From Candidatus Spongiisociaceae bacterium (GTDB lineage Bacteria; Actinomycetota; Acidimicrobiia; Spongiisociales; Spongiisociaceae): a DNA stretch of 64,000 nt. The position numbers and the translations under genes are program-made. Shown one piece after another: positions 40,455 through 55,976 of this stretch. Within the stretch, counting starts at the first letter, position 1. Each line of letters opens with the position of its first letter. The notes beneath the pieces are model-generated. The model ran no database searches, was not told the DNA's origin, and saw only the letters and a program-made list of their open reading frames with translations. The DNA lies in assembly GCA_965243165.1 (NCBI GenBank), contig OZ251535.1, positions 1,602,246 through 1,666,245 of the forward strand. Direction: 5' to 3'.

Positions 40455-41702
40455 TCAGTAGAGGTGTCCTTCGAGGCCGAGCAGCCATAGGGTGAGGATG
40501 GTGAGGGCGAGGCCGGCTGCGGCGCAGATCGTCCAGTCGATCAGGCGGGCGGCGAGTCTTCTGCCGGTTTTGGCGGGCGGGCGGGTGGTGTTGCGGTTTG
40601 GTTGGCGGGGGTGGTCTGGGGTGACGGCGGTGCGGGTGATTTGGTCGTGCCAGCCGCGTCGTTGGGTGTTGAAGAGGGGGGAGGCGGCGGTGAGGAGGAA
40701 GATGGGTATTCCGGCTAGGGGGATGAGGAGGGGGAGGTGGAGGGCGGCCCATCTGGCGGTTGTGCGGGTCCATCGGGGGGTTTGTCTGCCGGGGGTGCGG
40801 ATGGTTTGGATTCGGGTGAGGCGTTTGCCGATCGTTCGTCCGAGGGCGGCGGTTGTCAGGGTTTCGTAGAGGAGGAAGGGCGCCAGGAACAGACCGGCTG
40901 CGGCCGGGTAGGCGAGGAGGATGAAGGCCAAGAGGTCGACTCCGTTCGTATCGCTTCCGGTGTCTTCGTCGTTGCCGCCGAGGCCGGTCCGCATCAGGAG
41001 TTGTTCCAGCAGCGGGTTGAGGACTGTGATGCTCACGTCGTTTGTGGTTCCGTCTCTTCCCGCCGGGATGCCGGCGCGGATGCGGTCCAGCAGGTCCGCT
41101 TTCTTGGCGGGGGTGTCGACCACATCATGGAGTGCGACGGCAACTTCGATCTGTCCGGTTGTGATGTCTGGGGAAGACGTTATACCTGTTACCTCTTCGT
41201 AGCCGGATATGATGTCGTGAACGATCTGATGGCGTTTGGTGAGGCCTGCTTCGGTGAATCCCCGGTTTTCGATGATTCGGATGTCACGCGGGAAGGCTCG
41301 GACGGCTTCAACTGCCTCGGCGGGCGCTGTTCCGGTGAAGGATACAAACCCATTCACGCCGTCTTCGATCCAAGAACCTGTAAAGTCTTCCGGAAACTTT
41401 TCCCTGATTTGGTTGACCAAATAGCCGAACGGGCTTTGCCAGGCGTAATTCTCGATTGCTTCTTCGAGCGAGATGCCTTCCTGTTCTGCCAGAAATTCCA
41501 GGTCGCGGCAACGTTCTCCTGGAATTATTCCGGCGGCCAGCTGTTCGATTGGGTCCACTTTGGTCAGGGTGGTGGTAGTGACCAGAGTTCCGTATACGGG
41601 TGTACAGGTCCATGCGTTGCCGGCAGTCGGCATTGTGAGCAGGGATACCGCCAGCATTCCCAGCATCCACCCTGCCAGTGAGCTGCGCGTTCGGGTTGTC
41701 AT
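40455..41702 (-). CDS. Membrane protein with an N-terminal secreted domain homologous to the S1 protease pro-region, fused to a C-terminal RDD-family membrane domain (cassette A, gene 3)
   Basis: Signal peptide MTTRTRSSLAGWMLGMLAVSLLTMPTAGNAW. Residues ~50-230 align with the pro-region of protease 42889-44223 (EQEGISLEEAIENYAWQ...AFPRDIRIIENRGFTEAGL). C terminus carries RDD motifs (LGRTIGKRL...RRGWHD). The ATG overlaps the upstream gene stop (ATGA). Confidence 0.75.
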   Translation of the reverse strand: MTTRTRSSLAGWMLGMLAVSLLTMPTAGNAWTCTPVYGTLVTTTTLTKVDPIEQLAAGIIPGERCRDLEFLAEQEGISLEEAIENYAWQSPFGYLVNQIREKFPEDFTGSWIEDGVNGFVSFTGTAPAEAVEAVRAFPRDIRIIENRGFTEAGLTKRHQIVHDIISGYEEVTGITSSPDITTGQIEVAVALHDVVDTPAKKADLLDRIRAGIPAGRDGTTNDVSITVLNPLLEQLLMRTGLGGNDEDTGSDTNGVDLLAFILLAYPAAAGLFLAPFLLYETLTTAALGRTIGKRLTRIQTIRTPGRQTPRWTRTTARWAALHLPLLIPLAGIPIFLLTAASPLFNTQRRGWHDQITRTAVTPDHPRQPNRNTTRPPAKTGRRLAARLIDWTICAAAGLALTILTLWLLGLEGHLY

Positions 41703-42844
41703 GGGCCGCCTCGGTGTGCTTCGGAGGTTGGAACGACGATAGCGCCGGCGGCTTTGTCGTGCCATCCGCGCCGTTGGGAGTCGAAGAGGGGGGAGGCGGC
41801 TGTCAGGAAGAAGATGAGTATTCCGATGATGGGGAGTGCCAGGAGGGGAAGGTAGATCACAATCCATCTGATGCTGGCTCTCTTCCATCCTGGAACTCGG
41901 CCGTTGCCGATGCACACCACTCGGGTCTGGGTGAGAATTTTTCCGATCGTTTCTCCTCGAAGAGCAATCAGCGGCAACTCGTAGATGACCACCGAGGCTA
42001 AGACAGCAACGAAACCTATATGAAGTATAGATATAGCTATCCAGAGGTCGGATTCAGGTAACAGGCTCTGAACAGTAATCTGGAATGGTTCTATAAACGC
42101 AATACCTTTGTATATATCTATAAAAGTAGATCCTTCAAGTTCCAACAATCCTATCGACCATATCACAAGAGTGATCCCAGCTATTGAATATAGCAACCAG
42201 TCAATAGTTCGGGACAGGAACCGCTTATGCGTGGGAACTGAAAGAGAAACATTGTCCTGGATGGCCGGTGTTTTAGATGCTTGGGTAACAATTGTGCCCG
42301 CGATCTTGTCATGCCATCCGCGTCTTTGAGGGTCGAAGAGGGGGGATATAACTGTCAAGAGGAAAATTATTATTCCGATTATAGGAACCAGAAGAGGAAG
42401 ATATATTATCGCCCATCGCACGCTGGACATCTTCCATCCCGGAACGCGGCCGTTACTGTTATGAGTTACTTTGATTCCCATCATTATCTTCCCGATAGTC
42501 TGACCCCTGGCGGCGGTCATCGGAAGTTCATATAGAAGCGATGGAACCAGTAACAGGATTACACAGGCTAAGTGTATAGCAAAAATGGATAACCAAGGTT
42601 GAAAGTCAGGTACAGCATAAGTCTCAAACCATAATCTATAGGATTGTGAAGGAACTGAATCTCCACCTCCCAAGCCCACATAAGTTCTTGTAAAGCCGGT
42701 TACCCAGATTAGAGAGGACATCCCCCAGATCAGAGAGGACATCCAAAGCCAGATGCCTATAACAACATATAGTAACCAATCAATACATCGAGCTAATATG
42801 CGCCCTATCGATTCAGATTGATTGATACCGATAAGGCTCGCCAT
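41699..42844 (-). CDS. Tandem RDD-domain integral membrane protein (cassette A, gene 2)
   Basis: Two RDD units (GQTIGKIMMGIKV...RRGWHDKIAGT and GETIGKILTQTRV...RRGWHDKAAG) with multiple TM helices. Low GC. Confidence 0.75.
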   Translation of the reverse strand: MASLIGINQSESIGRILARCIDWLLYVVIGIWLWMSSLIWGMSSLIWVTGFTRTYVGLGGGDSVPSQSYRLWFETYAVPDFQPWLSIFAIHLACVILLLVPSLLYELPMTAARGQTIGKIMMGIKVTHNSNGRVPGWKMSSVRWAIIYLPLLVPIIGIIIFLLTVISPLFDPQRRGWHDKIAGTIVTQASKTPAIQDNVSLSVPTHKRFLSRTIDWLLYSIAGITLVIWSIGLLELEGSTFIDIYKGIAFIEPFQITVQSLLPESDLWIAISILHIGFVAVLASVVIYELPLIALRGETIGKILTQTRVVCIGNGRVPGWKRASIRWIVIYLPLLALPIIGILIFFLTAASPLFDSQRRGWHDKAAGAIVVPTSEAHRGGP

Positions 42845-42888
42845 TAGTTACTCCTTTCCTTGTGTTATTTTGTGCTTCATAATTGTGT

Positions 42889-44223
42889 TTATGAAGTAGC
42901 TACTGTCCAGCCTGGGAAGGCATCATCAATGTGATGAACCGGTGTAAAAAGATCCCGACGTTTTAAGCCAAATATCCAGTTGCCACTGTGAATACCGTAT
43001 GCAGTGGTTCCATGAAACCAAGGGCCTCCAGAATCACCTCCTCTGGCCTTTCTATTATGCATAGCAACCAGCTTTCGTCCTTCAGGATAGTATACGCTGC
43101 CCCTGTATACTCTGTCTACAGTGTAGCCGCTAGATTTCCCATATTTTCGCAACCATTGGCCTTCCATTGGTACTCCAGTAGATTCAACAAACTGATAATC
43201 GTTTGGTCCGCTGTCGTAACGAAATTCGTTCACAAGGGTATAGCCAGAAGGAACAGAATGTCTCTGAAGGTCCCCCCATTCTCCTTGATGTTCTATCCCC
43301 CAACCTAGCCGAAGATAAATAGAGCCGTCAATTAATCTTTGATTATTGCCACAGTGTCCTGCAGTAGAAATATGTCTCCTTCCACTCGTATGTTCAAGAA
43401 CAAAGCCCACTGTGCATGTGCTGAGATGCATTCCTCCTGTTACATCCTCATCTCCCCCGCCAGGAGTGGAGGTTACAATATTGAAAAGAACGTCTTTATT
43501 AGTCCCAGTACTGGCAACACTCCCGACTGGAAGGTTAGCTTGGAGAAGATCAAGCATAGATGTCTTCTCCTCAGGAGTAGATTCTGAGTTTTTTAGTACT
43601 ACTTCCACGGTTAGTAGTCCAGTTCCGATATCGTAGGTTGAGGCGGCTGTATCTATATTATCGTTGCCTATCACGCTATTATGAACTGAATCGAGACGTT
43701 GTCTAAGATCGGCTTCGGTGAAGCCCCGGTTCTCGATGATCTGCACGGCACGCGGGAAGGCCCGGATGGAACTCGCAGCACCGGCGGGCGCTGTTCCGGA
43801 GAAGGCCACCCAAGCTGTCAGATCTTCTTCGATCCGGGCTCCGGCGAAATCACCCGGATAATCTTGGCGGATTTCGTTGACCAAATAGGCGAGCGGGCCT
43901 TGCCAGGCGTACTTCTCGATCGCTTTGTCGAGTGAGATGCCTTCCTGTTCGGCCTGCCAGGTCAGCTGCTCGCGAAGCGCTTCGGATATTTCTCCCGCCG
44001 CGAACCGGGAAACCGGGTCGCTCGGGTTGCTCGGTGCCTTTTCGTCGGTTCCCCCTCCGCCGGAGGGTGCGCCGGTGCTGGGGGTTCCGAACCCGCCGTC
44101 GTCGGATCCGGGGGGTGAAACGGCCTGAACGGTCGAGGGGACGACCAGCGCCAACGCCAGCAACAGCAGGATGCCCGCCCTCGCCTTCGTGCGCCTCCGA
44201 ACTCTGCGTCTGCGGATCATCAT
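42889..44223 (-). CDS. Secreted S1-family serine protease, alpha-lytic protease/streptogrisin-like (S1E), with an N-terminal pro-region (cassette A, gene 1)
   Basis: Signal peptide, then a ~200-aa pro-region. Catalytic His in TAGHCG and Ser in GDSGGPWF. Paired Cys residues. Confidence 0.85.
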   Translation of the reverse strand: MMIRRRRVRRRTKARAGILLLLALALVVPSTVQAVSPPGSDDGGFGTPSTGAPSGGGGTDEKAPSNPSDPVSRFAAGEISEALREQLTWQAEQEGISLDKAIEKYAWQGPLAYLVNEIRQDYPGDFAGARIEEDLTAWVAFSGTAPAGAASSIRAFPRAVQIIENRGFTEADLRQRLDSVHNSVIGNDNIDTAASTYDIGTGLLTVEVVLKNSESTPEEKTSMLDLLQANLPVGSVASTGTNKDVLFNIVTSTPGGGDEDVTGGMHLSTCTVGFVLEHTSGRRHISTAGHCGNNQRLIDGSIYLRLGWGIEHQGEWGDLQRHSVPSGYTLVNEFRYDSGPNDYQFVESTGVPMEGQWLRKYGKSSGYTVDRVYRGSVYYPEGRKLVAMHNRKARGGDSGGPWFHGTTAYGIHSGNWIFGLKRRDLFTPVHHIDDAFPGWTVATS

Positions 44224-44420
44224 GAGATGCCTCCTGCCATCCTGCTTCTATTGCTTCTTCGAAGATATCACATCTAACAGGGTTCCGGAGGCTGAAACCG
44301 CATATTTCATAATTGTGTGCAATATGCAAAACCAAAGGATTGCATATTGTATACAATCTCAGCAAAACAGGTTAGCCTCACCGCTCGAGTCCGACTGATA
44401 CAGTTTATCTTCGCTGGCGA
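44224..44420 (-). promoter_or_regulatory. Low-GC promoter/leader of cassette A with a GntR-type palindromic operator; ~90% identical to 55130-55277 upstream of cassette B
   Basis: Near-dyad TGCAATATGCAA-N10-TTGCATATTGTA. The second arm also contains the perfect palindrome TTGTATACAA (GntR-like t.GT...AC.a). AT-rich -10-like hexamers. Confidence 0.5.
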
Positions 44421-44439
44421 GCTGATCGGTGCCGCTATT

Positions 44440-44700
44440 GGATCAATTCCCACCTCGACCAGCTTTGACGCCCCAGTCAAAGGTGCTGCGGCGGGCGAGA
44501 TGCCGCCTCGGTGTCCGCTTCGTCATCTTCACCGAGGCCTGCCGAGTCGGTGCTCCAGACCAGTCAAAGTGGGGGTGGGCTGCAGGCAGCGGAGCAGGAT
44601 GGAAGAGACAGGATCGCCAACACCTGGACAGCCGGGCGGTTCTCGACTGGGTTCGGAAGGTCTGCCGGGGTGACCGGACGTCTCTGCGGAGTGTCGGGCG
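44440..44700 (+). pseudogene. Degenerate duplicate of the polX 3' end (~75% identical to 40185-40440)
   Basis: ORF 44429..44713 translates to ...GVRFVIFTEACRVGAPDQSKWGW...DRQHLD.RAVLDWVRKV, against PolX ...GVRFVISTDAHRVGELAQSKWGV...DRIANTWPAEQFLDWVREV. Together with the intact polX end it brackets cassette A. Confidence 0.65.
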
Positions 44701-44723
44701 GCGGCGGCGTTAGGCTCCCGTCC

Positions 44724-45083
44724 ATGGACGGGCAAGGTACGGGAACGGGCGCGGACGCCGTCGGCCGGGGCGGAAGTTCTCTGGACCGGTTGGTGCGGGC
44801 CCACCCCCATGGGGTGATCCTCACGGTCTGGGTGACGCCTCGGGCGGTGCGCAGCGAGGTGGCGGGGCCGCATGGATCGTATCTGCGGGTGCGGGTCGCG
44901 GCCCCCGCCGAGGGGGGGCGGGCCAACCAGGCCGTTGTCCGCCTGCTTTCCAGCACCTTCGGGTGCCGGGTGGATCTGTTGTCCGGCGCCAGGAGCCGCA
45001 TCAAGCGCATGCTGCTGCGGGGCGCTGACCCCGACTCGGTGACCGCCGCCGTCGCCGCCGTTGCCCGGCGGGGCCGCAGATGA
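44724..45083 (+). CDS. DUF167 (YggU-like) protein
   Basis: Motif ...ILTVWVTPRAVRSEVAGPHGSYLRVRVAAPAEGGRANQAVVRLL.., characteristic of DUF167. Confidence 0.6.
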   Translation: MDGQGTGTGADAVGRGGSSLDRLVRAHPHGVILTVWVTPRAVRSEVAGPHGSYLRVRVAAPAEGGRANQAVVRLLSSTFGCRVDLLSGARSRIKRMLLRGADPDSVTAAVAAVARRGRR

Positions 45084-45138
45084 TGCGCAGGCGGGGCGGC
45101 CCTGCTACTTTCACGGCGTCCAGCAACGCCGGAGGTGG

Positions 45139-45531
45139 ATGATGCCGGTTCTGCGCCGAAGAAAGAAGCTGGCCGATTCAACGCTCGCCTATTTCAAGAG
45201 GATCCTCCAAGAGCGGGAGCGGGAGCTGTTGGCGGTCATTGCCGAACACGAGGCGGAGCGCCAAGAGGTGCGCATGGCCGAGACGGCGGCCGAGCGCAGC
45301 CCCGACCCCGACTCGGCCGACGGCGGGTCCATGGCTTTCGAGTTCGAGAAGGAGCTGTCTGTCGACCGCAACACCCGAGACATCCTGGCCCAGGTCCGCT
45401 CGGCCTTGGCGGCGGTGGAGGACGGCGTCTACGGCGTGTGCCGGGTTTGCCGGAGCCCCATCAGGGTGGCGCGGCTCCGAGCCCTTCCCCACACCAGCCT
45501 ATGCGTGGCTTGCGCCTCGAAAAGGCGCTGA
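45139..45531 (+). CDS. DksA/TraR-family C4 zinc-finger transcription factor
   Basis: Coiled-coil N terminus. C-terminal CRVC...CVAC zinc finger. ggaggtgg RBS. Confidence 0.75.
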   Translation: MMPVLRRRKKLADSTLAYFKRILQERERELLAVIAEHEAERQEVRMAETAAERSPDPDSADGGSMAFEFEKELSVDRNTRDILAQVRSALAAVEDGVYGVCRVCRSPIRVARLRALPHTSLCVACASKRR

Positions 45532-45980
45532 CCGTCCGGCGGCGCCGGGCCGCGCTGGTTGGGGCGGTGGTGTTGACGGCCGATCAGATCACCAAGCTGT
45601 GGGCCCGCACCGCCCTGGCGGACGGCGGCATCGAGGTGATACCGGGTTTCCTGCGGTTCCATCTGGGCGAGAACGCCGGCTCGGCCTTCTCCCTCTTCCA
45701 GGGCCAGGGCCCGCTGCTGGGGCTGGCGGCCGCCGCCGCCTCCGTTTTCATCCTGGTGATAGTCGAGCGGGCGGGCGCCCGTCTGGAGGTGGCCGGGCTT
45801 TCCTTGATCCTGGGCGGCGCGGTCGGCAACCTGGCCGACCGGGTGGTGAAAGGCCCCTGGTTGACCGGGACGGTCACAGATTTCATCGACTTCAGCTTCT
45901 GGCCGAACTTCAACCTGGCCGACTCGGCGATCACCCTGGGCGTGGCGGGGATGCTGTGGGCGGCGAGACGAGGCGGATGA
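45501..45980 (+). CDS. lspA: Lipoprotein signal peptidase II
   Basis: Conserved LspA regions: ADQITKLWA, NAGSAFSLF, FNLADSAITLG. Confidence 0.8.
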   Translation: MRGLRLEKALTVRRRRAALVGAVVLTADQITKLWARTALADGGIEVIPGFLRFHLGENAGSAFSLFQGQGPLLGLAAAAASVFILVIVERAGARLEVAGLSLILGGAVGNLADRVVKGPWLTGTVTDFIDFSFWPNFNLADSAITLGVAGMLWAARRGG

Positions 45981-46924
45981 CCGTCCCCGAATCGATGGAG
46001 GGGGAACGGTTCGACGCCGCCCTCGCCCGGTTGGCGGGGGTGAGCCGCTCCCGGGCGCGGCGGCTGATCGAGTCGGGCGAGGCTGGCCTGTCCCCGGTGG
46101 GCGGGGCGGGCGCCCCCGGCCGGACCGGCGTCCGGCGCATCCGGCTGAACACGCGGGCGGCGGCGGGCGACCGTATCTGGTTCCGGCCGCCGGAGGAACC
46201 CGTCCTCGGCCCCGAACCCATCCCCCTCGCCGTGCTCTACGAGGATCCGCACCTGGCGGTGATCGACAAACCGGCCGGCCTGGTCGTCCACCCCGGGGCG
46301 GGCAACTGGGGCGGCACCCTCGTATCGGCCCTGCTTCACTGCTGGCCGGAGGTGGAAGGGGTGGGGGAGCACCCCCGGTGGGGCATCGTCCACCGGCTCG
46401 ACAAGGACACCTCCGGGGCGATGGCGGTCGCCCGCCGCCCGGAGGCGCACCGCGGCCTGTCGGCGGCGCTGGCGGCCCGCCGGGTGAATAGGAGCTACCT
46501 GGCGCTGGTGCACGGCGCCTTCACCGCCGGCGCCGGGACCATCGACGCCCCCATCGACCGCCGCCGGGGCCGCCGCTTCGTCGGCCCGGACGGGAAACCG
46601 GCGGTTACCCGCTACCGTCGTCTGTCGGAGTGGCGGCGGCCCGGTCTCAGCCTTTTGGAGATCACCCTGGAGACGGGCCGCACCCACCAGATCAGGGTCC
46701 ACCTGGAGTCGATCGGGCGGCGGGTGGTGGGCGACGCCCTCTACGGCAAGCCGGGCGGCGGAGGGGCGCCCGATCCCGGGAGGCAGTGGCTGCATTCCCG
46801 GCTTCTGAGCTTCACCCACCCGATCACGGGGGCGCCCGTCGAGGCGGAGGCCCCCCTCCCCCCGGAGCTGCGGTCTTCCCTGGATGAGCTCGGCCCCCCC
46901 GACCTGGGCGCCGCCCCCGGGTGA
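45977..46924 (+). CDS. RluA-family 23S rRNA pseudouridine synthase (RluD-like)
   Basis: S4 domain plus the catalytic motif HRLDKDTSG. ATGA overlap with lspA. Confidence 0.85.
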   Translation: MTVPESMEGERFDAALARLAGVSRSRARRLIESGEAGLSPVGGAGAPGRTGVRRIRLNTRAAAGDRIWFRPPEEPVLGPEPIPLAVLYEDPHLAVIDKPAGLVVHPGAGNWGGTLVSALLHCWPEVEGVGEHPRWGIVHRLDKDTSGAMAVARRPEAHRGLSAALAARRVNRSYLALVHGAFTAGAGTIDAPIDRRRGRRFVGPDGKPAVTRYRRLSEWRRPGLSLLEITLETGRTHQIRVHLESIGRRVVGDALYGKPGGGGAPDPGRQWLHSRLLSFTHPITGAPVEAEAPLPPELRSSLDELGPPDLGAAPG

Positions 46925-46927
46925 AGC

Positions 46928-47225
46928 AAGGAACCGAAGCGGTCGAGCCTGCGAAAGTTCTCCGAACATACGTACCCCTAGCCGGAAGCCCGAAAATTTG
47001 GTATACCTATTGGGCTGAAGCACAAACACCGCCGCGAGTTCTGGAGAGGGCGGCGGTCAGAGAGACGGATCCCGTTCGGTCCGGCCCCGTCGGGCCGGGG
47101 GCGGCCTTGTGCGGCCCGGCGGATTTTCGTTCAAGGAGGCGGCGGCGGGGGATGGGCCCGGGTTTGCCGGCGGGGAGGGGCCGATTTTCGCGTTCTCGAG
47201 GGCATTTGGGTTGGATTGAAGGAGC
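46928..47225 (+). repeat. Full copy of the ~300-bp non-coding repeat element; inverted partner at 61141-61470
   Basis: ~90% identity over ~290 bp to the reverse complement of 61.2-61.47 kb. Indels between copies break every reading frame. Contains the palindrome ggtatacc and GC hairpins (ccggccccgtcgggccgg). Confidence 0.7.
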
Positions 47226-47403
47226 GGACGGCGGCGTGTTTGCCTCAGCGGGTTTGCCGAAAGGAGGGTATCTATGGCCTATATCGGCAGATGTCATGTT
47301 TGAGGCGCAACGGGCGCTGGCGAGTCGGTCTATGCCTGACGGCAGGGGCGGCCGACCGCTCGCTCGAGGCTCCCGGGCAGCCAGCTGGGCCGCTCTCCAA
47401 GGG

Positions 47404-47589
47404 TCAGTCGTCTTCGGTTTCGGTCGGGGAGGGTTCCGGATCGGGGTCGGCCGGAGAAATGTGGGAGTAGTAGCCCGCTATGTAGAACACTATCTGCAGC
47501 AGGACGAACACGCCCAAGGTTATCCACGGCCACCGAACCATCAGTTCCCCGAGTTCACCGACCAGCCTAACCACCGCATTCCCCTTCAA
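47404..47589 (-). pseudogene. Duplicated 3'-end fragment of the DUF2339 gene (tandem duplicate of 47650-47835)
   Basis: The ORF ends ...SPADPDPEPSPTETEDD, against the DUF2339 C terminus ...SPVPPADPDPEPSPTETEEAA. About 170 bp of nucleotide identity, including the 3' flank. Confidence 0.6.
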
Positions 47590-47733
47590 CCTCGACTGGC
47601 ATCATCGTAGTTTACATCGTTGATTGACATCGGGAACGCAACGGGTGCCCGCGAGTCGGTCTATGCCTGACGGCAGGGGCGGCCGACCGCTCGCTCGAGG
47701 CCCCCGGGCAGCCGGCCGGGCCGTTTCCAGGGG

Positions 47734-50475
47734 TCAGGCGGCTTCTTCGGTTTCGGTCGGGGAGGGTTCCGGATCGGGGTCGGCCGGAGGGACGGGGGAG
47801 AAGTAGCCCACTATCAGCAGCAGGACGCCCACGCCCAGGAAGGACACCACCCGGGCCAGGGTTCCGGTGTTGCCGAGGTCTACCAGGAACAGCTTCACCA
47901 CCACCACTCCCATCAGGGCGGCGCCTGCGATCCATACCGGACGCCGGACGAGCCGCCCGCCGGCCACCATCGCGCCCAGCCCGGCCAGCCCCCACAGGAT
48001 CGACAGGGACGCCTGCAGCAGGGTGGAGTCGAACATGTCTCCGAATCGGAACGGCACATCGAACCAATGGTGGACGGTGCGCACCGCACTCATCGTCAAC
48101 AGCAGCATCCCGAAAGCGGCCGTCCATCCAACCCAGTTGCGCCGGACGACGGACAGTTCCCAGCCCTCGAAGGGGGCGGTCCGGCGCCGCCACAGGAAAG
48201 CCGCGGCAGCCGTCAGGACGACGGCCGCCTCCAGCGGGTTGAGCAGCGGCAGATAGACCAGCGGACGCGGATCGCCGTCGGATGTCAGCAGGAGCACCGC
48301 CGACGCCGCCGTCAGCCCCGCCAGCAGCATCCCCGCCCCGGCGGTGAGGTAGACGCGCCGATACGGGCGGAGAGGCCAGGGGATGCGGCGCCCGTTCCAC
48401 AGCGGGATGGAGGCGGCCGCCAGCGCGGCGGCGACCCCCGCCGACGCGGGCCACACCCCGTCCGCCGCCCGATCGACCAGCGCGGACGCCTCCAAGGCGG
48501 CGAGCGCTGCAACCAGCCAGAGGCCCCCTGCGTGCAGGGCGGCCGCCAGTTTCGGGAACTGGTCCTCCCGCAGCCGCAGGAACAGGTAGAACACCGCCAG
48601 CGCGGCCGGCCAGGCCGCCCATCCGTATTCGTCGAACGGATGGCCGAGCCGCTCGGAATCCTCCCAGACAACTGTTATGAGCAGCGCCGCCGCCATGGCC
48701 GGCAGGACCGCCGTTCCCAGCGCCGCCAGCCGCGGCCAGCGCAGATGAGGCGCCGCCAGCGCCGCCCCTCCCAGACAGGCGGTCGTCCACACCAGCACGG
48801 CGGCCAGTTCGGCGTAGGAGAGCTGGTTGGCGATTTCCGTCGACCCGCCCCACAGGAGCCACGCCGCCCCCCATATCATCCCCATCCAAACCGCCGTCAG
48901 GCCGGAGGGGGTTCGGTGCCGCTCCCGGTCGTACAGCCAGGCCGAGAACAGCCCGGCCGCGGCCAGGAGGGCCGACCCGGCCAGATAGGGGTTGACCACC
49001 GGGAGGGCGTCGGCCGGATAGGGCAGCTCGACCAGCAGGAACCACATGAAGCTGACCCCCGCCAAGCCTTGGAGAAAAGCGCCGCCCGCCGCCAGCAGAC
49101 GGAAACGGCGGCGCAGGCCCATCCACACCACCGCCGCTCCTTCCGCCGCCCATATCAGGGATATGTAGAAGGCGTCGAAGGCCAGCGGGACGGCCAGCGA
49201 GGCGAAGAACAGGCCCAAGCCCAAGTGGGCGTCGCTCAGCAGCCTCCGCTCCCGGAAGACCCGCCAGTGGGCGGCCAGCAGCCCGCCGTGGAGGGCGGCC
49301 AGCCCCAAGGCGCTGAAGGCCGGTCCGTATTCGGTGTGGCCGACCAGCTCGTTCTGCAACAGGAAAACGGTGAACGGAGCTCCGAAGATCAGCGGCCCGT
49401 CTACCGTCCACCGGGCGGCCGGGCTGCGCTCCCGCCCCCGGATCTCCAGAAGCAGGGGCGCCGATATGTACATGACCGCGAACAGGGCCAGGAATATCTG
49501 GGCGGAGGCCATTTGGACGGGGTCGTAGCGGAGCAGCAGCCAGTGGGCGCTCACCCCGTATGTGAAGATGAAGCCCAAGAGGCTCAGCTCCGGCCAGCCT
49601 TTGAACCAGGTGAGGGCCAGCACCGCGGCGCCGAGCACCGCCATGTAGGTGAAGAGGAGCAGATGGTTCCCGTCGTCCACCGAGATCAACACCGGCGCCA
49701 GGAACCCGCCGATGAGGCCCAGCACCGACAGGGCGCGGGAGTCCTGCACCGTTGACAGCGCTCCGGTCCACACGGTGATCGCCACCACCGCGGCTATAGC
49801 GGCGGGGCCGGGCAGCACCTCGTAGCGGATGAGCGAGGCGTACACGGTCAGATAGAGGACCGCCGACCCTCCTCCCTGCAGGCTGAGCGCGTACATCAGA
49901 TTGCGCCGCCGCACCCACAGCCCCACCCCGGTCATGGCCGCTCCGAACAGGGCGGCCGCGGCCAGCCGCATTTCCAGGGTGAGGGTGATCCAGCCCCGGT
50001 TCAAGGCGGTCTGGATCAGGAATCCCAGCCCGATCAACGACAACAGGACCCCCGCTTTCACCGGGGCGTTGCCGGCGGTGAACCAGTTCTTGACGGCCCG
50101 CGCCGGTGCGCTCAGCAGCGCGGCGAGAGGGTCCTGCCGCGGAGGGTCCTCTTCGATTCGAGCCGGGGCGGCGGCAACCGGTTCGGGGCGCGGCCCCGCC
50201 GGAGACGGACGGGCGGCGGCAACCGGCGCGGGAGCCGCCCGGGGTGCGGCGGCCGGGGGCGGCGGAGCGGGGGCGGCGGGCGGAGCCTCCTTCGCGGGCG
50301 GGGCCGGTGCGGCCGCCTCGGCTTCGGGCTTTTGGCCGGCCTCCAGCTGTTCTACCCGTTTCCGGAGGCGGGTCACCTCGGCGCTCAATCGGCTGATCCG
50401 CACGGCCATAGGGATGAGGACGGGCGCCGTCGCCGCCAAGACGAACAAGACGGGCAAGACGATGTACAAACCCAC
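47734..50475 (-). CDS. DUF2339-family large polytopic membrane protein with an N-terminal coiled coil
   Basis: 913 aa. A GTG start at 50475 follows a ggaggggct RBS. Coiled coil (RISRLSAEVTRLRKRVEQLEAG), a Pro/Ala-rich linker, then >20 TM helices. The track ORF's N terminus (MDPHNRQMGRPPPPP...) is read-through of the upstream repeat. Confidence 0.75.
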   Translation of the reverse strand: MGLYIVLPVLFVLAATAPVLIPMAVRISRLSAEVTRLRKRVEQLEAGQKPEAEAAAPAPPAKEAPPAAPAPPPPAAAPRAAPAPVAAARPSPAGPRPEPVAAAPARIEEDPPRQDPLAALLSAPARAVKNWFTAGNAPVKAGVLLSLIGLGFLIQTALNRGWITLTLEMRLAAAALFGAAMTGVGLWVRRRNLMYALSLQGGGSAVLYLTVYASLIRYEVLPGPAAIAAVVAITVWTGALSTVQDSRALSVLGLIGGFLAPVLISVDDGNHLLLFTYMAVLGAAVLALTWFKGWPELSLLGFIFTYGVSAHWLLLRYDPVQMASAQIFLALFAVMYISAPLLLEIRGRERSPAARWTVDGPLIFGAPFTVFLLQNELVGHTEYGPAFSALGLAALHGGLLAAHWRVFRERRLLSDAHLGLGLFFASLAVPLAFDAFYISLIWAAEGAAVVWMGLRRRFRLLAAGGAFLQGLAGVSFMWFLLVELPYPADALPVVNPYLAGSALLAAAGLFSAWLYDRERHRTPSGLTAVWMGMIWGAAWLLWGGSTEIANQLSYAELAAVLVWTTACLGGAALAAPHLRWPRLAALGTAVLPAMAAALLITVVWEDSERLGHPFDEYGWAAWPAALAVFYLFLRLREDQFPKLAAALHAGGLWLVAALAALEASALVDRAADGVWPASAGVAAALAAASIPLWNGRRIPWPLRPYRRVYLTAGAGMLLAGLTAASAVLLLTSDGDPRPLVYLPLLNPLEAAVVLTAAAAFLWRRRTAPFEGWELSVVRRNWVGWTAAFGMLLLTMSAVRTVHHWFDVPFRFGDMFDSTLLQASLSILWGLAGLGAMVAGGRLVRRPVWIAGAALMGVVVVKLFLVDLGNTGTLARVVSFLGVGVLLLIVGYFSPVPPADPDPEPSPTETEEAA

Positions 50476-50567
50476 AGCCCCTCCCTTCTGGGCCGATCCT
50501 AGCGAAGGAGAGTCTTCCTGTTCGGACTGTGTTCCTTCCGCCGGTCGATGCGCCGGGGTGATTCCGT

Positions 50568-51050
50568 TCAGTAGAGGTGTCCTTCGAAGCCGAGCAGCCA
50601 TAGGGTGAGGATGGTGAGGGCGAGGCCGGATGCGGTGCAGATCGTCCAGTCGATCAGGCGGGCGGCGAGCCTTCTGCCGGCTGCGGCGGGCGGGCGGGTG
50701 GTGTTTCGGCTTGGTTGGGGGTCTGGGGTTACGGCGGTGCGGGTGATTTTGTCGTGCCATCCGCGTCGTTGGGGGTCGAAGAGGGGGGAGGCGGCGGTGA
50801 GGAGGAAGATGGGTATTCCGGCCAGGGGGATGAGCAGGGGGAGGTGGAGGGCGGCCCATCTGGCGGTTGTGCGGGTCCATCTTGGGGTTTGTCCGCCGGG
50901 GGTGCGGATGGTTTGGATTCGGGTGAGGCGTTTACCGATCGTTCGTCCGAGGGCGGCGGTTGCCAGGGTTTCGTAGAGAAGGAAGGGTGCCAGGAACAGG
51001 CCGGCGGCGGCCAGGTAGACGAGGAGCAACAGCACCAAGGGGTCGACGCC
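50568..51050 (-). repeat. ~480-bp direct repeat (3' end of the pro-region-RDD fusion gene). Copies at 40455-40935 (~90% id) and a partial third copy at 51712-51845
   Basis: Nucleotide alignment of the two cassette termini. The encoded C termini (…RTIGKRLTRIQTIRTPG.QTPRWTRTTARWAALHLPLLIPLAGIPIFLLTAASPLF...LGLEGHLY) are nearly identical. The segment is high-GC, unlike the rest of the cassettes. Confidence 0.75.
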
Positions 51051-51701
51051 GCGGCCGGCATCGCTTTCACCACCCGGCACATCTGGCTCAGTTCCGTCTC
51101 CGGTGTTCATCAACATTTCGAGGCGGTGCAGGAGTGGATTCATAACGATCAGGTCAATGTCATCTATGGTTCCGTCTCTTCCGGCTGGAATTTCAGCACG
51201 GATGCGGTCTAGTATGGTTGCTTTCTTGGCGGGAGTGTCGACCGAATCGTCGAGCACGAAGTTCACCGTGAATTGTCCTGTGGCTATATCGAAGGTAGAT
51301 CCAGTTTCTATTACGCTTTCGTTGTTCCATACGATATCATGAACGATGGTGAGTCGTTCTTTGAGTTGTGCTTCGGTGTAGCCGCGGTCCTCGATGATTT
51401 GTATGTCGCGGGGAAACGCCAGAATTGTTTCTACGGCGCCGGCGGGGGCTTCTCCAGCGAAGGCGATCCAAACCGTCTGGTCGTCTTCGATCCGAGCTCC
51501 TGCAAAATCTTCTGGATATTCTTCCCGGATATCGTTGACCATCGTAGACAGTGATCCCTTTGTAAGGGTGGCAGCGGCGGCCAGAGCATCGGATACGAGT
51601 GTACTGGCCCATGCGTTGCCGGCGGTCAACGCTGCAAGTAGGAAAACCGCCAGCATTCCCAGCAACCGCCATGTCTGTGAGCTTCGCCTCCGGGTACTCA
51701 T
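50568..51701 (-). CDS. Pro-region-like domain fused to an RDD membrane domain (cassette B, gene 4). Shorter pro-like domain than its paralogs
   Basis: Signal peptide MSTRRRSSQTWRLLGMLAVFLLAALTAGNAWA. Pro-like segment (…ILAFPRDIQIIEDRGYTEAQL…). RDD C terminus. Start overlaps the upstream gene stop. Confidence 0.75.
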   Translation of the reverse strand: MSTRRRSSQTWRLLGMLAVFLLAALTAGNAWASTLVSDALAAAATLTKGSLSTMVNDIREEYPEDFAGARIEDDQTVWIAFAGEAPAGAVETILAFPRDIQIIEDRGYTEAQLKERLTIVHDIVWNNESVIETGSTFDIATGQFTVNFVLDDSVDTPAKKATILDRIRAEIPAGRDGTIDDIDLIVMNPLLHRLEMLMNTGDGTEPDVPGGESDAGRGVDPLVLLLLVYLAAAGLFLAPFLLYETLATAALGRTIGKRLTRIQTIRTPGGQTPRWTRTTARWAALHLPLLIPLAGIPIFLLTAASPLFDPQRRGWHDKITRTAVTPDPQPSRNTTRPPAAAGRRLAARLIDWTICTASGLALTILTLWLLGFEGHLY

Positions 51702-52576
51702 CGGCCGCCTCCTGTTTGCCGATTGTTCGTCCGAGGGCGGCGGCTGCCAGGGTTTCGTAGGAGGAAGAGCGTCAGGAGCAGGCTGGCGGCGGCTAAGCAG
51801 ACGAGGAGTAACAGCACCAGGGGGTCAACGCCGCGGCCGACTTCGCTTTCACCATCCGGCATACCTAGCTCGGGTCCGCCTTCGATGCGATCGACAACCT
51901 TCAGGTCGATGTCATCTATGGTTCCGTCTCTTCCCGCCGGTATTTCAGCGCGGATGCGGTTTAGTATGGTTGCTTTCTTGGCGGGGGTATCGATTGAATC
52001 ATGCAGTACGATAGTAACTTGGATCTGTCCGGTAGTGATGGAGTAAGTCGATATGTAATCTATCACCTCTTCGTAGCTGGACGCGATTCCGGAAACAATC
52101 CCGTGGCGTTTGTTGAGGGTTGCTTCGGTGAATCCCCGGTTTTCGATGATTCGGATGGGGTGTGGGAAGGCTCGGATGGCTTCAACGGCCTCGGCGGGCG
52201 CTGTTCCGGTGAAGGATACAAAACCATTCACGTCGTTCCTGATCCAAGAGCCTGTAAAGTCTTCGGGATATTTTTCCCTGATTTCGTTGACTAAATAGGA
52301 GAACGCGTCTTGCCAGGCGTACCTCTCAATGGATTCTTCGAGCGAGATGCCTTCCTGTTCTGCTATCAATTCCAGGTCTTGGCAAAGGTATCCAGAGATT
52401 ATTCCGGCGGCCAGCTGTTCAACTGGGTCGGCCTTTGTCAGGGTAGTATTGGTGTCTGGAGTGTCGGATACGGTTGTACAGGTCCATGCGTTGCCGGCGG
52501 TCGGCGCTGCGAGCAGGGAAACCGTCAGTATTCCCAGCAACCGCCATGCCAATGAACTGCGGGCTCGGGTTTTCAT
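51698..52576 (-). CDS. Pro-region-like secreted protein, a C-terminally truncated paralog of the pro-region-RDD fusions (cassette B, gene 3); likely a degenerate copy
   Basis: The N-terminal 230 aa are ~75% identical to 40455..41702. The TM region ends in the out-of-frame tail ...RNPGSRRPRTNNRQTGGGR. The alternative frame at 51712-51760 still encodes AAALGRTIGK (RDD motif), so a frameshift plus deletion is inferred. Confidence 0.6.
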   Translation of the reverse strand: MKTRARSSLAWRLLGILTVSLLAAPTAGNAWTCTTVSDTPDTNTTLTKADPVEQLAAGIISGYLCQDLELIAEQEGISLEESIERYAWQDAFSYLVNEIREKYPEDFTGSWIRNDVNGFVSFTGTAPAEAVEAIRAFPHPIRIIENRGFTEATLNKRHGIVSGIASSYEEVIDYISTYSITTGQIQVTIVLHDSIDTPAKKATILNRIRAEIPAGRDGTIDDIDLKVVDRIEGGPELGMPDGESEVGRGVDPLVLLLLVCLAAASLLLTLFLLRNPGSRRPRTNNRQTGGGR

Positions 52577-53730
52577 GAGCTGCCCCTCGACTGTTGGCGG
52601 CCTTGAAGCCCTTCGGAGGTTGGAACGACGATGGTGCCTGCGGCTTTGTCGTGCCATCCGCGCCGTTGGGGGTCGAAGAGGGGGGAGGCGGCTGTCAGAA
52701 GGAAGACCAGTATTCCGATGATGGGTAGTGCGAGGAGGGGAAGGTAGAGCACCATCCATCTTATGCTGGCTTTCTTCCATCCGGGAACTTGGCCGTTGTC
52801 GATGCATACTACTTGGGTCTTGGTGAGTATTTTTCCGATTGTTTCTCCTCGAAGAGCAGTCAGCGGCAACTCGTAGATAACTACCGAGATGAAGACAATG
52901 GTGAAGGAATTATGAATTCCAAATACAGCCAACCAGAAGTCGGATTCATATATCATCCGTCTTATACCCTCAATCTGATAAGAGATGCTCAATGGTTCTA
53001 TGGCAACCCTGCTATTGTATAGGTCTATGAAGGTTGATCCTTCGAGTTCTAGCAATCCAATTGACCATATCAGAAAGGTAACTCCAGCTATTGAATATAG
53101 CAGCCAGTCGATAGTTCGGGCCAGCAACCGTTTGTGTGCACCGGTTGGAAAGAGAAGTGATGTTCTTGATTCTTTGTCTTTACTTACTGGAGCGACGAGT
53201 GTGCCAGCGATTTTGTCGTGCCAGCCGTGTCGTTGAGAGTTGAACAGCGGTGATGCGGTTGTCAGGAGGAAAATCAGTATTCCGATTATTGGAATCAGAA
53301 GAGGAAGGTAGAGTATCGCCCATCTTATGCTGGATCTTGTCCATCCTGGAAAGTGGCCCTTATTGTTGTGGGTTACTTTGATTCCCATCAGTATCTTCCC
53401 GGCTGTTTGCCCTCTCGCGGCGATCAGCGGTAGTTCATATAGAAGAGATGGAAGTAGTAATAGTATTACACCGGCCAGATGTATAGCAAAGATAGATGTC
53501 CAGGGTTGGAGGTCAGGTATCGCATAGGTTTCGATCCATGTTACCGGAGGCGGCGGAGGGTCAGGTTCAACCTGATAAGTACTCCGTTTTGTTCCCGTCA
53601 AGAGTGCTATCCAATCTTGAGATGATAATAAAAGAGTTATGCCTGTAATAACATAGATCGTCCAATCGATGCACCGAGCTAATACGCGCCTCGTTGATTC
53701 AGATTGGTTGATCTTTATGATGCTTGCCAT
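52573..53730 (-). CDS. Tandem RDD-domain membrane protein (cassette B, gene 2), paralog of 41699..42844
   Basis: Start MASIIKINQSES, matching MASLIGINQSES in the paralog. Two RDD units (GQTAGKILMGIKV...RHGWHDKIAG and GETIGKILTKTQV...RRGWHDKAAG). Confidence 0.7.
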   Translation of the reverse strand: MASIIKINQSESTRRVLARCIDWTIYVITGITLLLSSQDWIALLTGTKRSTYQVEPDPPPPPVTWIETYAIPDLQPWTSIFAIHLAGVILLLLPSLLYELPLIAARGQTAGKILMGIKVTHNNKGHFPGWTRSSIRWAILYLPLLIPIIGILIFLLTTASPLFNSQRHGWHDKIAGTLVAPVSKDKESRTSLLFPTGAHKRLLARTIDWLLYSIAGVTFLIWSIGLLELEGSTFIDLYNSRVAIEPLSISYQIEGIRRMIYESDFWLAVFGIHNSFTIVFISVVIYELPLTALRGETIGKILTKTQVVCIDNGQVPGWKKASIRWMVLYLPLLALPIIGILVFLLTAASPLFDPQRRGWHDKAAGTIVVPTSEGLQGRQQSRGSS

Positions 53731-53779
53731 TTTCTTTTTGCCCTCCTCGTCTCCTGCTATTACCTTTATAGCCGATGGT

Positions 53780-55129
53780 TTATGAAGTAGCGACATCCCA
53801 ACCAGGAAAGGCGTCTTCAATATGATGGACCGGAGTAAAAAGGCTTCTCCTTTTACTGGCTGGACGCCCTATATCATTTTTGTAGCCAAAATGAATACCA
53901 TAGGCGGTGTCTCCCCGGAACCATGGACCCCCAGAATCTCCTCCTTGAGTTGTATGACTAAACATTGCTACTAGATGTTCTGCTATACCGGCATTAACAA
54001 CACCTCTGTAGACCCAATCTGATTTATAACCTGTGGACATTCCATAATTTAATAATACTTGACCTTCCACTGGGACTCCGGTTGACAAGATCGGCCGAGA
54101 GTGCCGCCCGCTGCTATTATAACGAATACTATTTGTCAGAGTGTGTCCTGAAGGTACGGAATGCCGTTGAAGGTCTCCCCATCGTCCTTCATGTTCGTCT
54201 TCAAAAGTCAATGTTATCCTAATATTGCCGTCCCTCAATGTCTGATTGTTGGAACAGTGGCCTGCAGTGGAGATATTCCTCTCCCCGTTTGAGTTCTCAA
54301 GAACAAACCCTGCTGTGCACCGGCTGAGATGTGTCCCGCCTCGTATGTCGGATTCAGCTCCGCCCGCTATGTCACTTACGACATTCAGAGTCACGTCGCT
54401 GGTTCCAACGTTGGCAACGCTTCCGATCGGGAGTTCGGCGCGTAGAAGATCCGACAGTGCTTTCTTCTGTGCGGGGGTGTCAGCCGAATCCTCGATTGCG
54501 ACGGTTACCTCCAACCGGCCGGTAGCGAGGTCGTAGGTCGAGACAGCGTCTTCGACCTTGTCGTTTGCCATCACGCTGTCATGAACGGCGGTGAGGCGCC
54601 GATTGAGGCCAGCTTCGGTGAAACCCCGGTTCTCGATGATTTGCACGGCGCGCGGGAAGGCGCGGATGGAGCTCGCAGCACCGGCGGGCGCCGTTCCGGA
54701 GAAGGCCACCCAGGCTGTCAGATCTTCTTCGATCCGGGCTCCGGCGAAATCATTCGGATAATCTTGGCGGATCTCGTTGACCAGATAGGCGAGGGGGCCT
54801 TGCCATGCGTACTTCTCAATCGCTTTGTCGAGTGAGATGCCTTCCTGTTCGGCCTGCCAGGTCAGCTGTTCGCGAAGGGCTTCGGAGATCTCTCCCGCCG
54901 CGAACCGGGCAACCGGGTCACTGGGGCTGCTCGGCGCCTCTTCGTTGCCTCCCCCTCCGCTGGCTGGTACACCGGCGCCGGGGCCGGGGGTTCCGAACCC
55001 GCCGTCGTCGGATCCGGGGGGTGAAGCGGCCTGAACGGCCAAGGGGAGGACCAGCGCCAGCGCCAGCAACAGCAGGATGCCCGCCCTCGCCTTCGTGCGC
55101 CTCCGAGCTCTGCGTCTGCGGATCATCAT
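53780..55129 (-). CDS. Secreted S1E (alpha-lytic/streptogrisin-like) serine protease with pro-region (cassette B, gene 1), paralog of 42889..44223
   Basis: Signal peptide. Pro-region ~90% identical to the cassette A protease. The mature domain has diverged (TAGHCSNN, GDSGGPWF). Confidence 0.85.
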   Translation of the reverse strand: MMIRRRRARRRTKARAGILLLLALALVLPLAVQAASPPGSDDGGFGTPGPGAGVPASGGGGNEEAPSSPSDPVARFAAGEISEALREQLTWQAEQEGISLDKAIEKYAWQGPLAYLVNEIRQDYPNDFAGARIEEDLTAWVAFSGTAPAGAASSIRAFPRAVQIIENRGFTEAGLNRRLTAVHDSVMANDKVEDAVSTYDLATGRLEVTVAIEDSADTPAQKKALSDLLRAELPIGSVANVGTSDVTLNVVSDIAGGAESDIRGGTHLSRCTAGFVLENSNGERNISTAGHCSNNQTLRDGNIRITLTFEDEHEGRWGDLQRHSVPSGHTLTNSIRYNSSGRHSRPILSTGVPVEGQVLLNYGMSTGYKSDWVYRGVVNAGIAEHLVAMFSHTTQGGDSGGPWFRGDTAYGIHFGYKNDIGRPASKRRSLFTPVHHIEDAFPGWDVATS

Positions 55130-55277
55130 GAGATTCCTCCTGTCATCCGGCTTCCTATTGCTTCTTCGAAGATATCACATCGAATAGGGTTCCGGAGGCT
55201 GAAACCGCCTATTTTGTAATTGTGTGCAATATGCAAAACCGGAAGATTGCATATTGTATACAATCTCAGCAAACCGG
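55130..55277 (-). promoter_or_regulatory. Promoter/operator region of cassette B, lying between the GntR gene and the protease gene
   Basis: Contains the same TGCAATATGCAA / TTGCATATTGTATACAA dyads as the cassette A leader. Low GC. Confidence 0.5.
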
Positions 55278-55976
55278 TCAGGCCATGGCGTTGTTTCGGC
55301 GCGCTGATATCAGTTGTTGTATTTCGGAAGAGACTGCCGTCAGGTGCTCGGCGATCCACTGCTCGGCCCGGTCGGAGTCCTTGGCTCGGATGGCTTCCGT
55401 CAGGACTTTGTACATCGAATGCCGGTGCGGGGCTGCGTCGACGCTCATCCAGTAGCGGCCCAGTCCGGTGCGGAGCCTGCCCACGATGGCGGCGGTCAGC
55501 GGGCAGTGGGCGGCGGTGTAGACGCGCTGGTAGAACCGGTCGGTGAGCTCCCGCCGCCGGGCGGGGTTATCCTCGCCGTCGATCTGCTTCGCCAGTTCGG
55601 TGAGCTCGTCCACGGCGGCGGGGGTGATCCGTTCGATCGCCAACCGCAGGGCGAAGGTCTCCAACAAGATGCGGAGCTGGTAGGTCTCCTCCAGCTCCTC
55701 GGGTTCGAGCATTCGGACCGTTGCCCCCCGGTGGGGGGCGTAATCCACCAGGCCTTCCGCGGCGAGGGTGTGGAGGGCGGCGGTCACCGGCACCCGCGAG
55801 GTGTTCAGCTCTTTGGCCAGGGCCGCTTGGCGCAGCCTTTGCCCCGGTTTCAGGACGCCGGTGATGATCGCCTCGCGCAGAGCGGCCGTTACGGCTTCTT
55901 CCACCGTGCTGTAACGCAGGTTGGCCCGGTGGGCTATCTCTGCGAGAGTTCCTTCTGCGGCCATCCGCCCGGCCAT
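55278..55976 (-). CDS. GntR-family transcriptional regulator (FadR/FCD subfamily)
   Basis: N-terminal wHTH (...GQRLRQAALAKELNTSRVPVTAALHTLAAEGLV). C-terminal all-helical FCD domain. Sits immediately upstream of the cassette B operator. Confidence 0.8.
   Translation of the reverse strand: MAGRMAAEGTLAEIAHRANLRYSTVEEAVTAALREAIITGVLKPGQRLRQAALAKELNTSRVPVTAALHTLAAEGLVDYAPHRGATVRMLEPEELEETYQLRILLETFALRLAIERITPAAVDELTELAKQIDGEDNPARRRELTDRFYQRVYTAAHCPLTAAIVGRLRTGLGRYWMSVDAAPHRHSMYKVLTEAIRAKDSDRAEQWIAEHLTAVSSEIQQLISARRNNAMA

Follow-up and report, generated by a model that had tools for sequence, protein, structure and literature searches.

The window analysed here is a stretch of 64,000 nucleotides (nt) from the genome of Candidatus Spongiisociaceae bacterium (assembly GCA_965243165.1, contig OZ251535.1, positions 1,602,246 to 1,666,245 of the forward strand). 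Two paralogous minus-strand cassettes, A (40455-44366) and B (50568-55273, in window coordinates, as throughout), each combine a prepro-protease of the streptogrisin/alpha-lytic (S1E) type, a membrane protein with two RDD domains, and one or two proteins in which a domain related to the pro-region (Pro) of the protease is predicted to be tethered to the membrane on its outer side. In overall alignment, the two cassettes are 75-78% identical at the DNA level, in agreement with the initial annotation, which had recognised two paralogous minus-strand units, each with a protease and a double-RDD protein. Their seven genes, whose products are identical, with the starts chosen here, to the public gene calls on the 3.19-Mb NCBI contig, are as follows (aa, amino acids; TM, transmembrane segment).

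42889-44223, minus strand: A1, prepro-S1E serine protease, 444 aa
41699-42844, minus strand: A2, tandem-RDD membrane protein, 381 aa, with six hydrophobic segments
40455-41702, minus strand: A3, 415 aa, signal peptide, Pro-like domain (residues ~46-235), juxtamembrane helix, and partial RDD
53780-55129, minus strand: B0, prepro-S1E protease, 449 aa, paralog of A1
52573-53730, minus strand: BR, tandem-RDD membrane protein, 385 aa, 65-67% identical to A2
51698-52576, minus strand: B1, 292 aa, signal peptide, complete Pro-like domain, single TM, and basic tail
50568-51701, minus strand: B2, 377 aa, signal peptide, Pro-like domain lacking two N-terminal helices, and partial RDD

Cassette A contains one Pro-like gene (A3) and cassette B two (B1 and B2). 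The 4-nt overlaps that had been ascribed to the whole of each operon are present as ATGA start/stop overlaps at A2/A3, BR/B1, and B1/B2, whereas the junctions between protease and tandem-RDD gene are spacers of 44-49 nt with ribosome-binding sites.

Sequence and structural models show that each cassette encodes a Sec-exported prepro-protease of S1E type. In A1, a signal peptide (residues ~1-34) and a low-complexity linker are followed by a Pro domain (~69-250), a flexible junction (253-263), and a catalytic domain (~259-444). The C-terminal ~185 residues of A1 and B0 match only S1E enzymes in phmmer searches of the Protein Data Bank (PDB), namely NAPase, SGPA, TFPA, a Glu-specific protease, and SFase (E 1e-6 to 3e-3). 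The AlphaFold (AF2) model of A1 has a pLDDT above 90 over residues 78-250 and 264-444, and its best Foldseek matches are NAPase, TFPA, alpha-lytic protease (aLP), SGPB, and the Lysobacter L1/L5 enzymes (E ~1e-11). A1 and B0 combine a chymotrypsin fold and the His-Asp-Ser order with nearest similarity to S1E, and the catalytic triad (H290, D318, S398) is invariant in 25 family members. Pfam Trypsin (PF00089) aligns only with the C-terminal ~45 residues and misses its gathering threshold in both proteins (19.7 and 20.1 bits vs 20.6); by sequence, the A1/B0 family appears to be a divergent branch of S1E that has no Pfam model. A complete cis Pro domain is retained by both enzymes. These results, together with the predicted fold of the N-terminal domain described below, bear out the earlier view of an alpha-lytic-like protease with its own pro-region. 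The nearest genomes are metagenome-assembled genomes (MAGs) of Acidimicrobiia, at 41-47% protease identity.

The ~180-aa domain of A3, B1, and B2 shares 39-48% identity with A1 and B0 over residues ~70-265 of the latter (BLASTP E 1e-43 to 1e-57; 1e-49 to 1e-54 for A3 against A1/B0 and 2e-57 for B1 against B0), which indicates homology to the N-terminal domain of the protease far beyond chance and upholds the relationship that had been proposed by eye. Because a fold search with full-length A1 returned mostly catalytic-domain matches, A3 was modelled for this purpose. Its AF2 model has a pLDDT above 90 over residues 50-230, and its top four Foldseek matches in the PDB are the aLP Pro chains of 3PRO and 4PRO (E 1e-4 to 1.2e-3, probability 1.00, target-normalised TM-score 0.45-0.62), consistent with the two-subdomain alpha/beta fold of a Pro region. 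The profile check suggested along with the initial annotation gave the opposite outcome: PF02983 (Pro_Al_protease) matches none of the seven proteins and none of 21 pro-domain sequences, even at E <= 10, and a profile of the 21 sequences reaches the alpha-lytic Pro region (2pro) in the PDB at E 0.62 only. Pfam and NCBIfam scans of the Pro-like domain returned nothing, and a PDB profile match to CpcN (E 9e-7) was judged spurious, being the sum of weak repeats. In A1, B0, and 81 of the 150 best family representatives, the domain lies between a signal peptide and an S1E catalytic domain; A3, B1, and B2 have no catalytic domain, so that this position does not apply to these three. Since predicted fold and position agree, the shared domain was accepted as a divergent Pro region, and sequence and models together show a predicted alpha-lytic Pro fold for the ~180-aa N-terminal domain of A1 and B0.

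The tethered copies have several features of their own. In A3, B1, and their homologs, a pair of conserved Cys residues lies N-terminal to the domain, and the tethered copies share the invariant motif DTPAKKA…IPAG.DGT, which the Pro domains of the proteases themselves lack. Where a cis Pro continues beyond its last strand into a cleavable tail, the tethered copies have a short conserved helix (NPLL..L) and a Gly/Asp-rich linker leading to the membrane. In B2, the Pro fold lacks its first two helices.

The membrane parts are related to RDD proteins to different degrees. A2 and BR each contain two stretches matching PF06271 (E 5.9e-38, 130.7 bits, and E 6.6e-41, 140.2 bits, respectively), with above-threshold scores, the R...D...D signature, and transmembrane segments, in line with their initial description as double-RDD proteins. 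A3 (62 bits) and B2 (60 bits) give partial matches at E 1e-16, which cover positions ~40-137 of PF06271 (the distal two-thirds) and then the first ~30 positions, or first helix, of another unit; the membrane part of A3 corresponds by BLASTP to A2 residues 87-241, that is, TM2 and TM3 of unit 1 and TM1 of unit 2. B1 has a single TM and no Pfam RDD match. The proposed fusion of a pro-region with an RDD anchor is accordingly found in A3 and B2, with a partial RDD, and not in B1. In A3, the Pro-like domain stands where A2 and BR have RDD helix 1 and an acidic first loop; hydropathy and loop charges put this loop outside the cytoplasm. Each of A3, B1, and B2 begins with a basic n-region that leads into a hydrophobic core and an A-x-A-like site (…AGNA|W). 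The A3 domain behind the signal peptide is acidic (K+R 17, D+E 36), and strongly basic loops (K+R 9, D+E 1-2) come after the hydrophobic segment that follows it. A cleavable-looking signal peptide, acidic composition, loop charges, and the conserved Cys pair thus predict that the Pro-like domains are exported and membrane-tethered outside the cell, and the topology check proposed with the initial annotation came out in favour of an extracytoplasmic domain.

Pairwise comparisons of orthologs and paralogs give dN/dS values of 0.28-0.57 for the Pro-like and RDD parts, at dS 0.2-1.1, suggesting that selection on the fusions is purifying but fairly relaxed. The fusion architecture, including the terminal partial RDD, is kept in the proteins P0007-P0009 at ~50% identity.

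Comparison of the two cassettes reveals a variable enzymatic core (58-62% DNA identity) between conserved arms (84-96%). DNA identity is 84-95% for the promoter, the signal peptide, and Pro residues 69-174 and 90-96% for the terminal RDD segments of A3 and B2, whereas it falls to 58-62%, with saturated dS, from residue ~175 through the catalytic domain. At the protein level, A1 and B0 share 94-98% of Pro residues 69-174, 51% of residues 175-249, 77% of the whole Pro, and 62% of the catalytic domain. The figure of ~90% first given for the pro-regions therefore describes their N-terminal two-thirds and neither the C-terminal third nor the whole, while the greater divergence of the mature protease domain is confirmed. 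The Pro C-subdomain has diverged together with the catalytic domain, as is expected if, as in 4PRO, it contacts the enzyme. Among themselves, A3, B1, and B2 share 57-67% identity in the C-subdomain, compared with 29-36% with A1 and 38-44% with B0.

Base composition is likewise mosaic. The G+C content at third codon positions (GC3) is 0.34-0.38 in the catalytic domains and 0.43-0.55 in the tandem-RDD genes, compared with ~0.8 in the signal-peptide region and the RDD parts of A3 and B2 and 0.83-0.90 in flanking genes, so that the low G+C content noted for entire cassettes holds for the catalytic and tandem-RDD parts and not for the others. Recent horizontal transfer is only partly viable as the cause: relatives in the clade share the same low-GC core, which argues that the anomaly is old or maintained.

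Eighty loci from representative genomes were found with a protease alignment. A Pro plus a catalytic match was found in 75 of the 83 sequences scanned (these 80, L001, L002, and the window), and this architecture occurs in Actinomycetota, Chloroflexota, Longimicrobium, Acidobacteriota, and some archaeal MAGs. Adjacency of protease and RDD genes is seen in the window, L002, L003, L024, L083, and L085. L003 and L024, from distant Acidimicrobiia (protease identity 41-46%), carry a protease, two RDD genes, a lipoprotein gene, and a GntR gene; in L085, the order is GntR, protease, tandem RDD, the 55-residue remains of a second protease (10577-10747), and a second tandem RDD; and the protease of L083 has RDD genes after it, both fragmentary and intact, with polX at the end. 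The protease has been lost at two loci that keep intact tandem-RDD and Pro-like genes: L001, which encodes a two-domain fusion (P0002) and an A3 ortholog, has in place of the locus-B protease only a 24-residue C-terminal remnant (6529-6603) fused after a truncated GntR gene, and in L089 (4801-7069) a second tandem-RDD gene replaces GntR and protease.

Fusions to RDD are confined to a narrow clade; the architecture of Pro plus protease is widespread. None of the 80 representative-genome loci has a pro-RDD fusion, and three have a Pro-like match with no catalytic domain following; the stand-alone pro genes of Dehalococcoidia L056 turned out to be protease fragments, disrupted by an insertion sequence (IS) or duplicated. 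The fusion class comprises 12 proteins among 5.8 billion, all from one metagenome set and this genome. The pro profile retrieves 2,101 clusters (50% identity, E <= 1e-3) from 1.84 billion representatives, with no Pfam model, and ~45% of the best 150 representatives have no catalytic domain, some of which may be gene fragments. Among these 150, four proteins from other lineages (P0077, P0090, P0091, and P0121) consist of a signal peptide, a Pro-like domain, a C-terminal TM, and a basic tail. Only P0077 (L091, 6001-6873) and P0091 (L094, 6001-6834) could be judged for their surroundings, and neither has an intact protease nearby; P0091 is flanked by an extracytoplasmic-function (ECF) sigma factor gene and an integrase gene. 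P0075, P0098, P0100, and P0103 have instead an N-terminal TM, an unknown Cys-containing domain, and the Pro-like domain. The occurrence of Pro-like proteins with a TM in other lineages indicates that membrane tethering of orphan Pro-like domains arose more than once.

As to the origin of the fusions, we infer that protease-RDD units were duplicated in tandem and then lost the catalytic domain together with RDD helix 1 through in-frame deletions, which would have joined the signal peptide and Pro-like domain to RDD helices in A3 and B2 and to a single helix in B1. A3 is a hybrid that resembles B1 in its 5' half and B2 in its 3' half. In B1, a 2-nt deletion after TM1, the first helix, has cut short what was a Pro-like-RDD gene, and the basic C-terminal tail RNPGSRRPRTNNRQTGGGR (51698-51760) results from out-of-frame reading of the cytoplasmic RDD loop; contigs of at least four other strains carry this truncated form too. 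Cassette A itself lies at the 3' end of polX, beyond which the following feature is found.

44412-44661, plus strand: polX 3' duplicate, decayed and frameshifted by indels, ~250 bp, 79% identical to 40175-40426

This decayed duplicate marks the far edge of cassette A and implies that the cassette is a secondary copy, inserted at the polX 3' end with target or flank duplication; in the relative L001, polX has no cassette. A mobile element was considered and rejected, as the cassettes and their immediate surroundings contain no integrase, transposase, tRNA, or Rfam element and the polX duplicate is the sole trace of insertion.

Upstream of the proteases, two conserved regions and a regulator gene were delineated.

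44224-44366, minus strand: cassette A upstream region (promoter/leader), ~94% identical to the B0 upstream region
55130-55273, minus strand: cassette B upstream region, conserved, holding the palindrome
55278-55976, minus strand: GntR/FCD-family regulator gene, directly upstream of cassette B

The perfect palindrome TTGTATACAA occurs at 44347-44356 and 55254-55263, twice in the window against 0.01 expected, and once upstream of protease genes at each of L002 13120, L083 7870, L084 939, L085 7848, and L086 6164, that is, in 5 of 93 loci searched. In every case examined, 125-153 nt separate it from the protease start codon downstream, and it forms part of a longer, imperfect inverted repeat. The protease locus also has a GntR/FCD gene next to it in L002, L003, and L085, and in L001 this gene is truncated. 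The protein probably acts on this candidate operator to control the protease operons. Scans for promoters and terminators gave results at chance level.

Alpha-lytic protease is the textbook example of a kinetically trapped enzyme, and its Pro region is both foldase and inhibitor, binds the native protease with sub-nanomolar affinity, and acts in trans. By analogy, the Pro-like domain, predicted to be displayed on the outer face of the cytoplasmic membrane at the position of RDD loop 1, may bind mature protease molecules at the cell surface, a reading that we hold tentatively, at slightly less than even chances. An inhibitory 'shield' of this kind would guard the cell against its own or a neighbour's protease. 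The tandem-RDD protein would be the older partner of the protease and may act as a membrane regulator, as SppI does for SppA, and the GntR/FCD regulator, acting on the conserved palindrome, would probably set operon expression. An inhibitory, protective role is favoured because the cis Pro is intact, protease-less relatives retain the fusions, and the tethered proteins occur in multiple copies. A close second form of the same idea is a dock that would hold the enzyme at the cell without inhibiting it, and the replacement of the cis-Pro cleavable tail with the NPLL helix and linker is compatible with such a dock. Binding at the surface is supported further by the homology to the N-terminal domain of the proteases, the predicted outside topology, the purifying selection and invariant motif of the tethered copies, the TM-tethered proteins of other lineages, the polymorphic protease core, the conserved adjacency of protease and RDD genes in distant Acidimicrobiia, and the precedent of SppI.

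The same domain could instead serve as a membrane-anchored private steric chaperone that folds the Sec-emerging protease in trans, in the manner of Lif/LipH. Trans foldase activity is established for the alpha-lytic Pro, whose fold the domain is predicted to share, and the Pro-like genes sit in the operon of the protease; Lif is membrane-anchored and is classed with Pro regions as a steric chaperone (PMC3352829, PMC13381987). Both proteases, however, keep a full cis Pro, modelled with high confidence, so that an extra trans foldase seems redundant; most family members across phyla have no tethered copy (of 80 loci, 3 have a Pro-like match with no catalytic domain after it and none has a pro-RDD fusion); the fusions persist despite deletion of the protease gene; and the substrate-like C-terminal tail that the alpha-lytic Pro needs for foldase activity is replaced by a helix and TM. 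We consider such a foldase unlikely, and the tethered proteins would more probably be inhibitory shields. About equally unlikely is that the protease is a polymorphic, diffusible antagonistic enzyme, for which the tethered domains would be chaperone-derived immunity proteins, orphan in protease-less strains; independently evolved single-TM versions in other phyla would then do the same job. The enzyme could, for example, be bacteriolytic, as are the alpha-lytic, L1, and L5 proteases of Lysobacter. This antagonist reading is weakened by the absence of both toxicity evidence and co-variation with protease variants: the tethered C-subdomains do not follow the enzyme variant as those of an immunity partner would, which also weakens any strict cognate-immunity model.

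Two further explanations were considered. The fusions might be non-functional leftovers of an unstable locus with repeated duplications and deletions, where units are born and die (the protease remnant of L085, the deletions of L001 and L089), B1 is a frameshift product, B2 is N-terminally truncated, A3 is a hybrid, and the whole class has a very narrow distribution. Such debris is rather improbable, given that the open reading frames (ORFs) are kept under the dN/dS range stated above, that the architecture is conserved down to its odd C-terminal partial RDD, that ATGA translational coupling is retained, that a motif particular to tethered domains is invariant, and that analogous tethered proteins exist in other lineages. 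Alternatively, the ectodomain could report the protease, through binding or cleavage, to the RDD module, giving a cytoplasmic signal and feedback on expression. RDD domains are often fused to signalling domains and have been proposed to possess a conserved site within the membrane that faces the cytoplasm (PMC12419801), SppI has been discussed as a possible sensor/activator (PMC7568657), the operons are flanked by a regulator gene and a conserved palindrome, and P0091 adjoins an ECF sigma factor gene. A3 and B2, however, have no cytoplasmic output domain, B1 and the other single-TM forms have no RDD at all, and no evidence links GntR to the RDD proteins, which makes a sensor the least probable of these alternatives. 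The surface binder, and within it the inhibitor, is preferred over the foldase because the cis Pro is intact and the fusions persist where the protease was lost. Several observations nevertheless count against it: the domains have no profile match to PF02983 and reach 2pro only insignificantly; dN/dS of up to 0.57 is relaxed; the missing helices of B2 and the 2-nt deletion in B1 are signs of decay; the gene directly after the protease is the tandem RDD and not a Pro-like gene; A3, B1, and B2 are all closer to B0 than to A1, whichever cassette they belong to, which fits cognate pairs poorly; and the protease-less relatives are metagenome contigs of 18-35 kb, so that a protease may sit elsewhere in the genome.

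Several known systems resemble parts of this arrangement. The alpha-lytic Pro (2PRO/3PRO/4PRO; PF02983) and the streptogrisin pro-peptides correspond to the Pro domains of A1 and B0 in predicted fold and position, although no sequence-profile similarity to the alpha-lytic Pro is detectable; A3, B1, and B2 differ further in being separate gene products that are predicted to be permanently tethered rather than cleaved and degraded. In Bacillus subtilis, the RDD protein SppI (YteJ) forms a complex with, and inhibits, its operon-partner protease SppA (PMC7568657). The cassettes likewise place an RDD protein gene beside a serine protease gene, an adjacency conserved across Acidimicrobiia here; SppA, however, is a membrane-bound S49 peptidase, whereas the cassette proteases are secreted S1E enzymes, and SppI, which lacks an ectodomain resembling a pro-domain, uses its own C-terminal domain for inhibition. 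Lif/LipH proteins are membrane-anchored private steric chaperones (PMC3352829, PMC13381987), and Lif/LipH/LimA resemble the tethered Pro proteins as membrane-anchored, operon-encoded partners of a secreted hydrolase. Lif is nevertheless absent from the fold matches of the Pro-like domain, and its client has no cis pro-domain, whereas the cassette proteases keep theirs.

Propeptide-like inhibitors are known in MEROPS families I9 (yeast PBI2, POIA1) and I29 (CTLA-2, BCPI). As in the cassettes, a pro-domain has been duplicated as an independent gene, and the product acts on the mature enzyme; these inhibitors are soluble and belong to the subtilisin and papain clans, unlike the membrane-tethered S1E copies. 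We know of no propeptide-like inhibitor for S1E and of none that is membrane-tethered, and the literature search yielded no description of S1E Pro-domain paralogs, tethered or not. Polymorphic toxin/immunity loci share with the cassettes the conserved segments around a divergent C-terminal enzymatic domain and the several downstream binder paralogs that are retained where the enzyme is lost; they differ in that the cassette protease has no antibacterial evidence, its putative binders do not co-vary with it, and its export is by Sec only, with no dedicated delivery system. The initial annotation knew of no described operon type of this kind, which stands for the tethered S1E pro-domain paralogs and has to be relaxed for the rest, as the SppA-SppI pair and the anchored Lif/LipH chaperones are already known. 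The arrangement combines known themes: propeptide-derived inhibitors, membrane-anchored steric chaperones, and RDD-protease pairs.

Other features of the window lie outside the cassettes. A GC-rich repeat of ~280 nt with several stem-like GC palindromes, 90-92% identical between its copies, occurs at 46935-47215 (plus strand), downstream of rluD, and at 61191-61467 (minus strand), upstream of a GPAT-like acyltransferase ORF and overlapping its start; it has no Rfam match. A direct repeat of ~210 nt (85% identical; 47306-47516 and 47637-47837) lies in a gene-poor stretch between rluD and the 3' end of a DUF2339 gene. Two low-GC islands look like acquired defence-type elements: a module at 11893-13808 (46-50% G+C against ~69%), with an AAA_15/AAA_21 ATPase of 490 aa and a 148-aa protein that has no Pfam match, and a gene in the island 19090-24003 (40-47%) for a protein of 1483 aa with a sacsin-like N-terminal region and a ResIII/DEAD/Helicase_C C-terminal part, which is followed by a 151-aa ORF. 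A lower-GC pair at 7640-9243 encodes a response-regulator-SpoIIE (PP2C) phosphatase and a protein of 144 aa whose sequence, on visual inspection, looks like that of an RsbW-type anti-sigma kinase; the two would form a partner-switching module.

Propeptides of subtilisin and cathepsins have given rise to soluble inhibitors. If the reading of the tethered proteins as surface binders is true, the Pro module of the S1E family would have been recruited for a second job, whether surface capture, self-protection, or immunity, and the cassettes would offer only the second functional handle on the large and enigmatic RDD family, again with a protease. With ~2,100 clusters in the pro family and ~45% of the best 150 representatives lacking a catalytic domain, the phenomenon of tethered Pro domains may extend beyond this clade.

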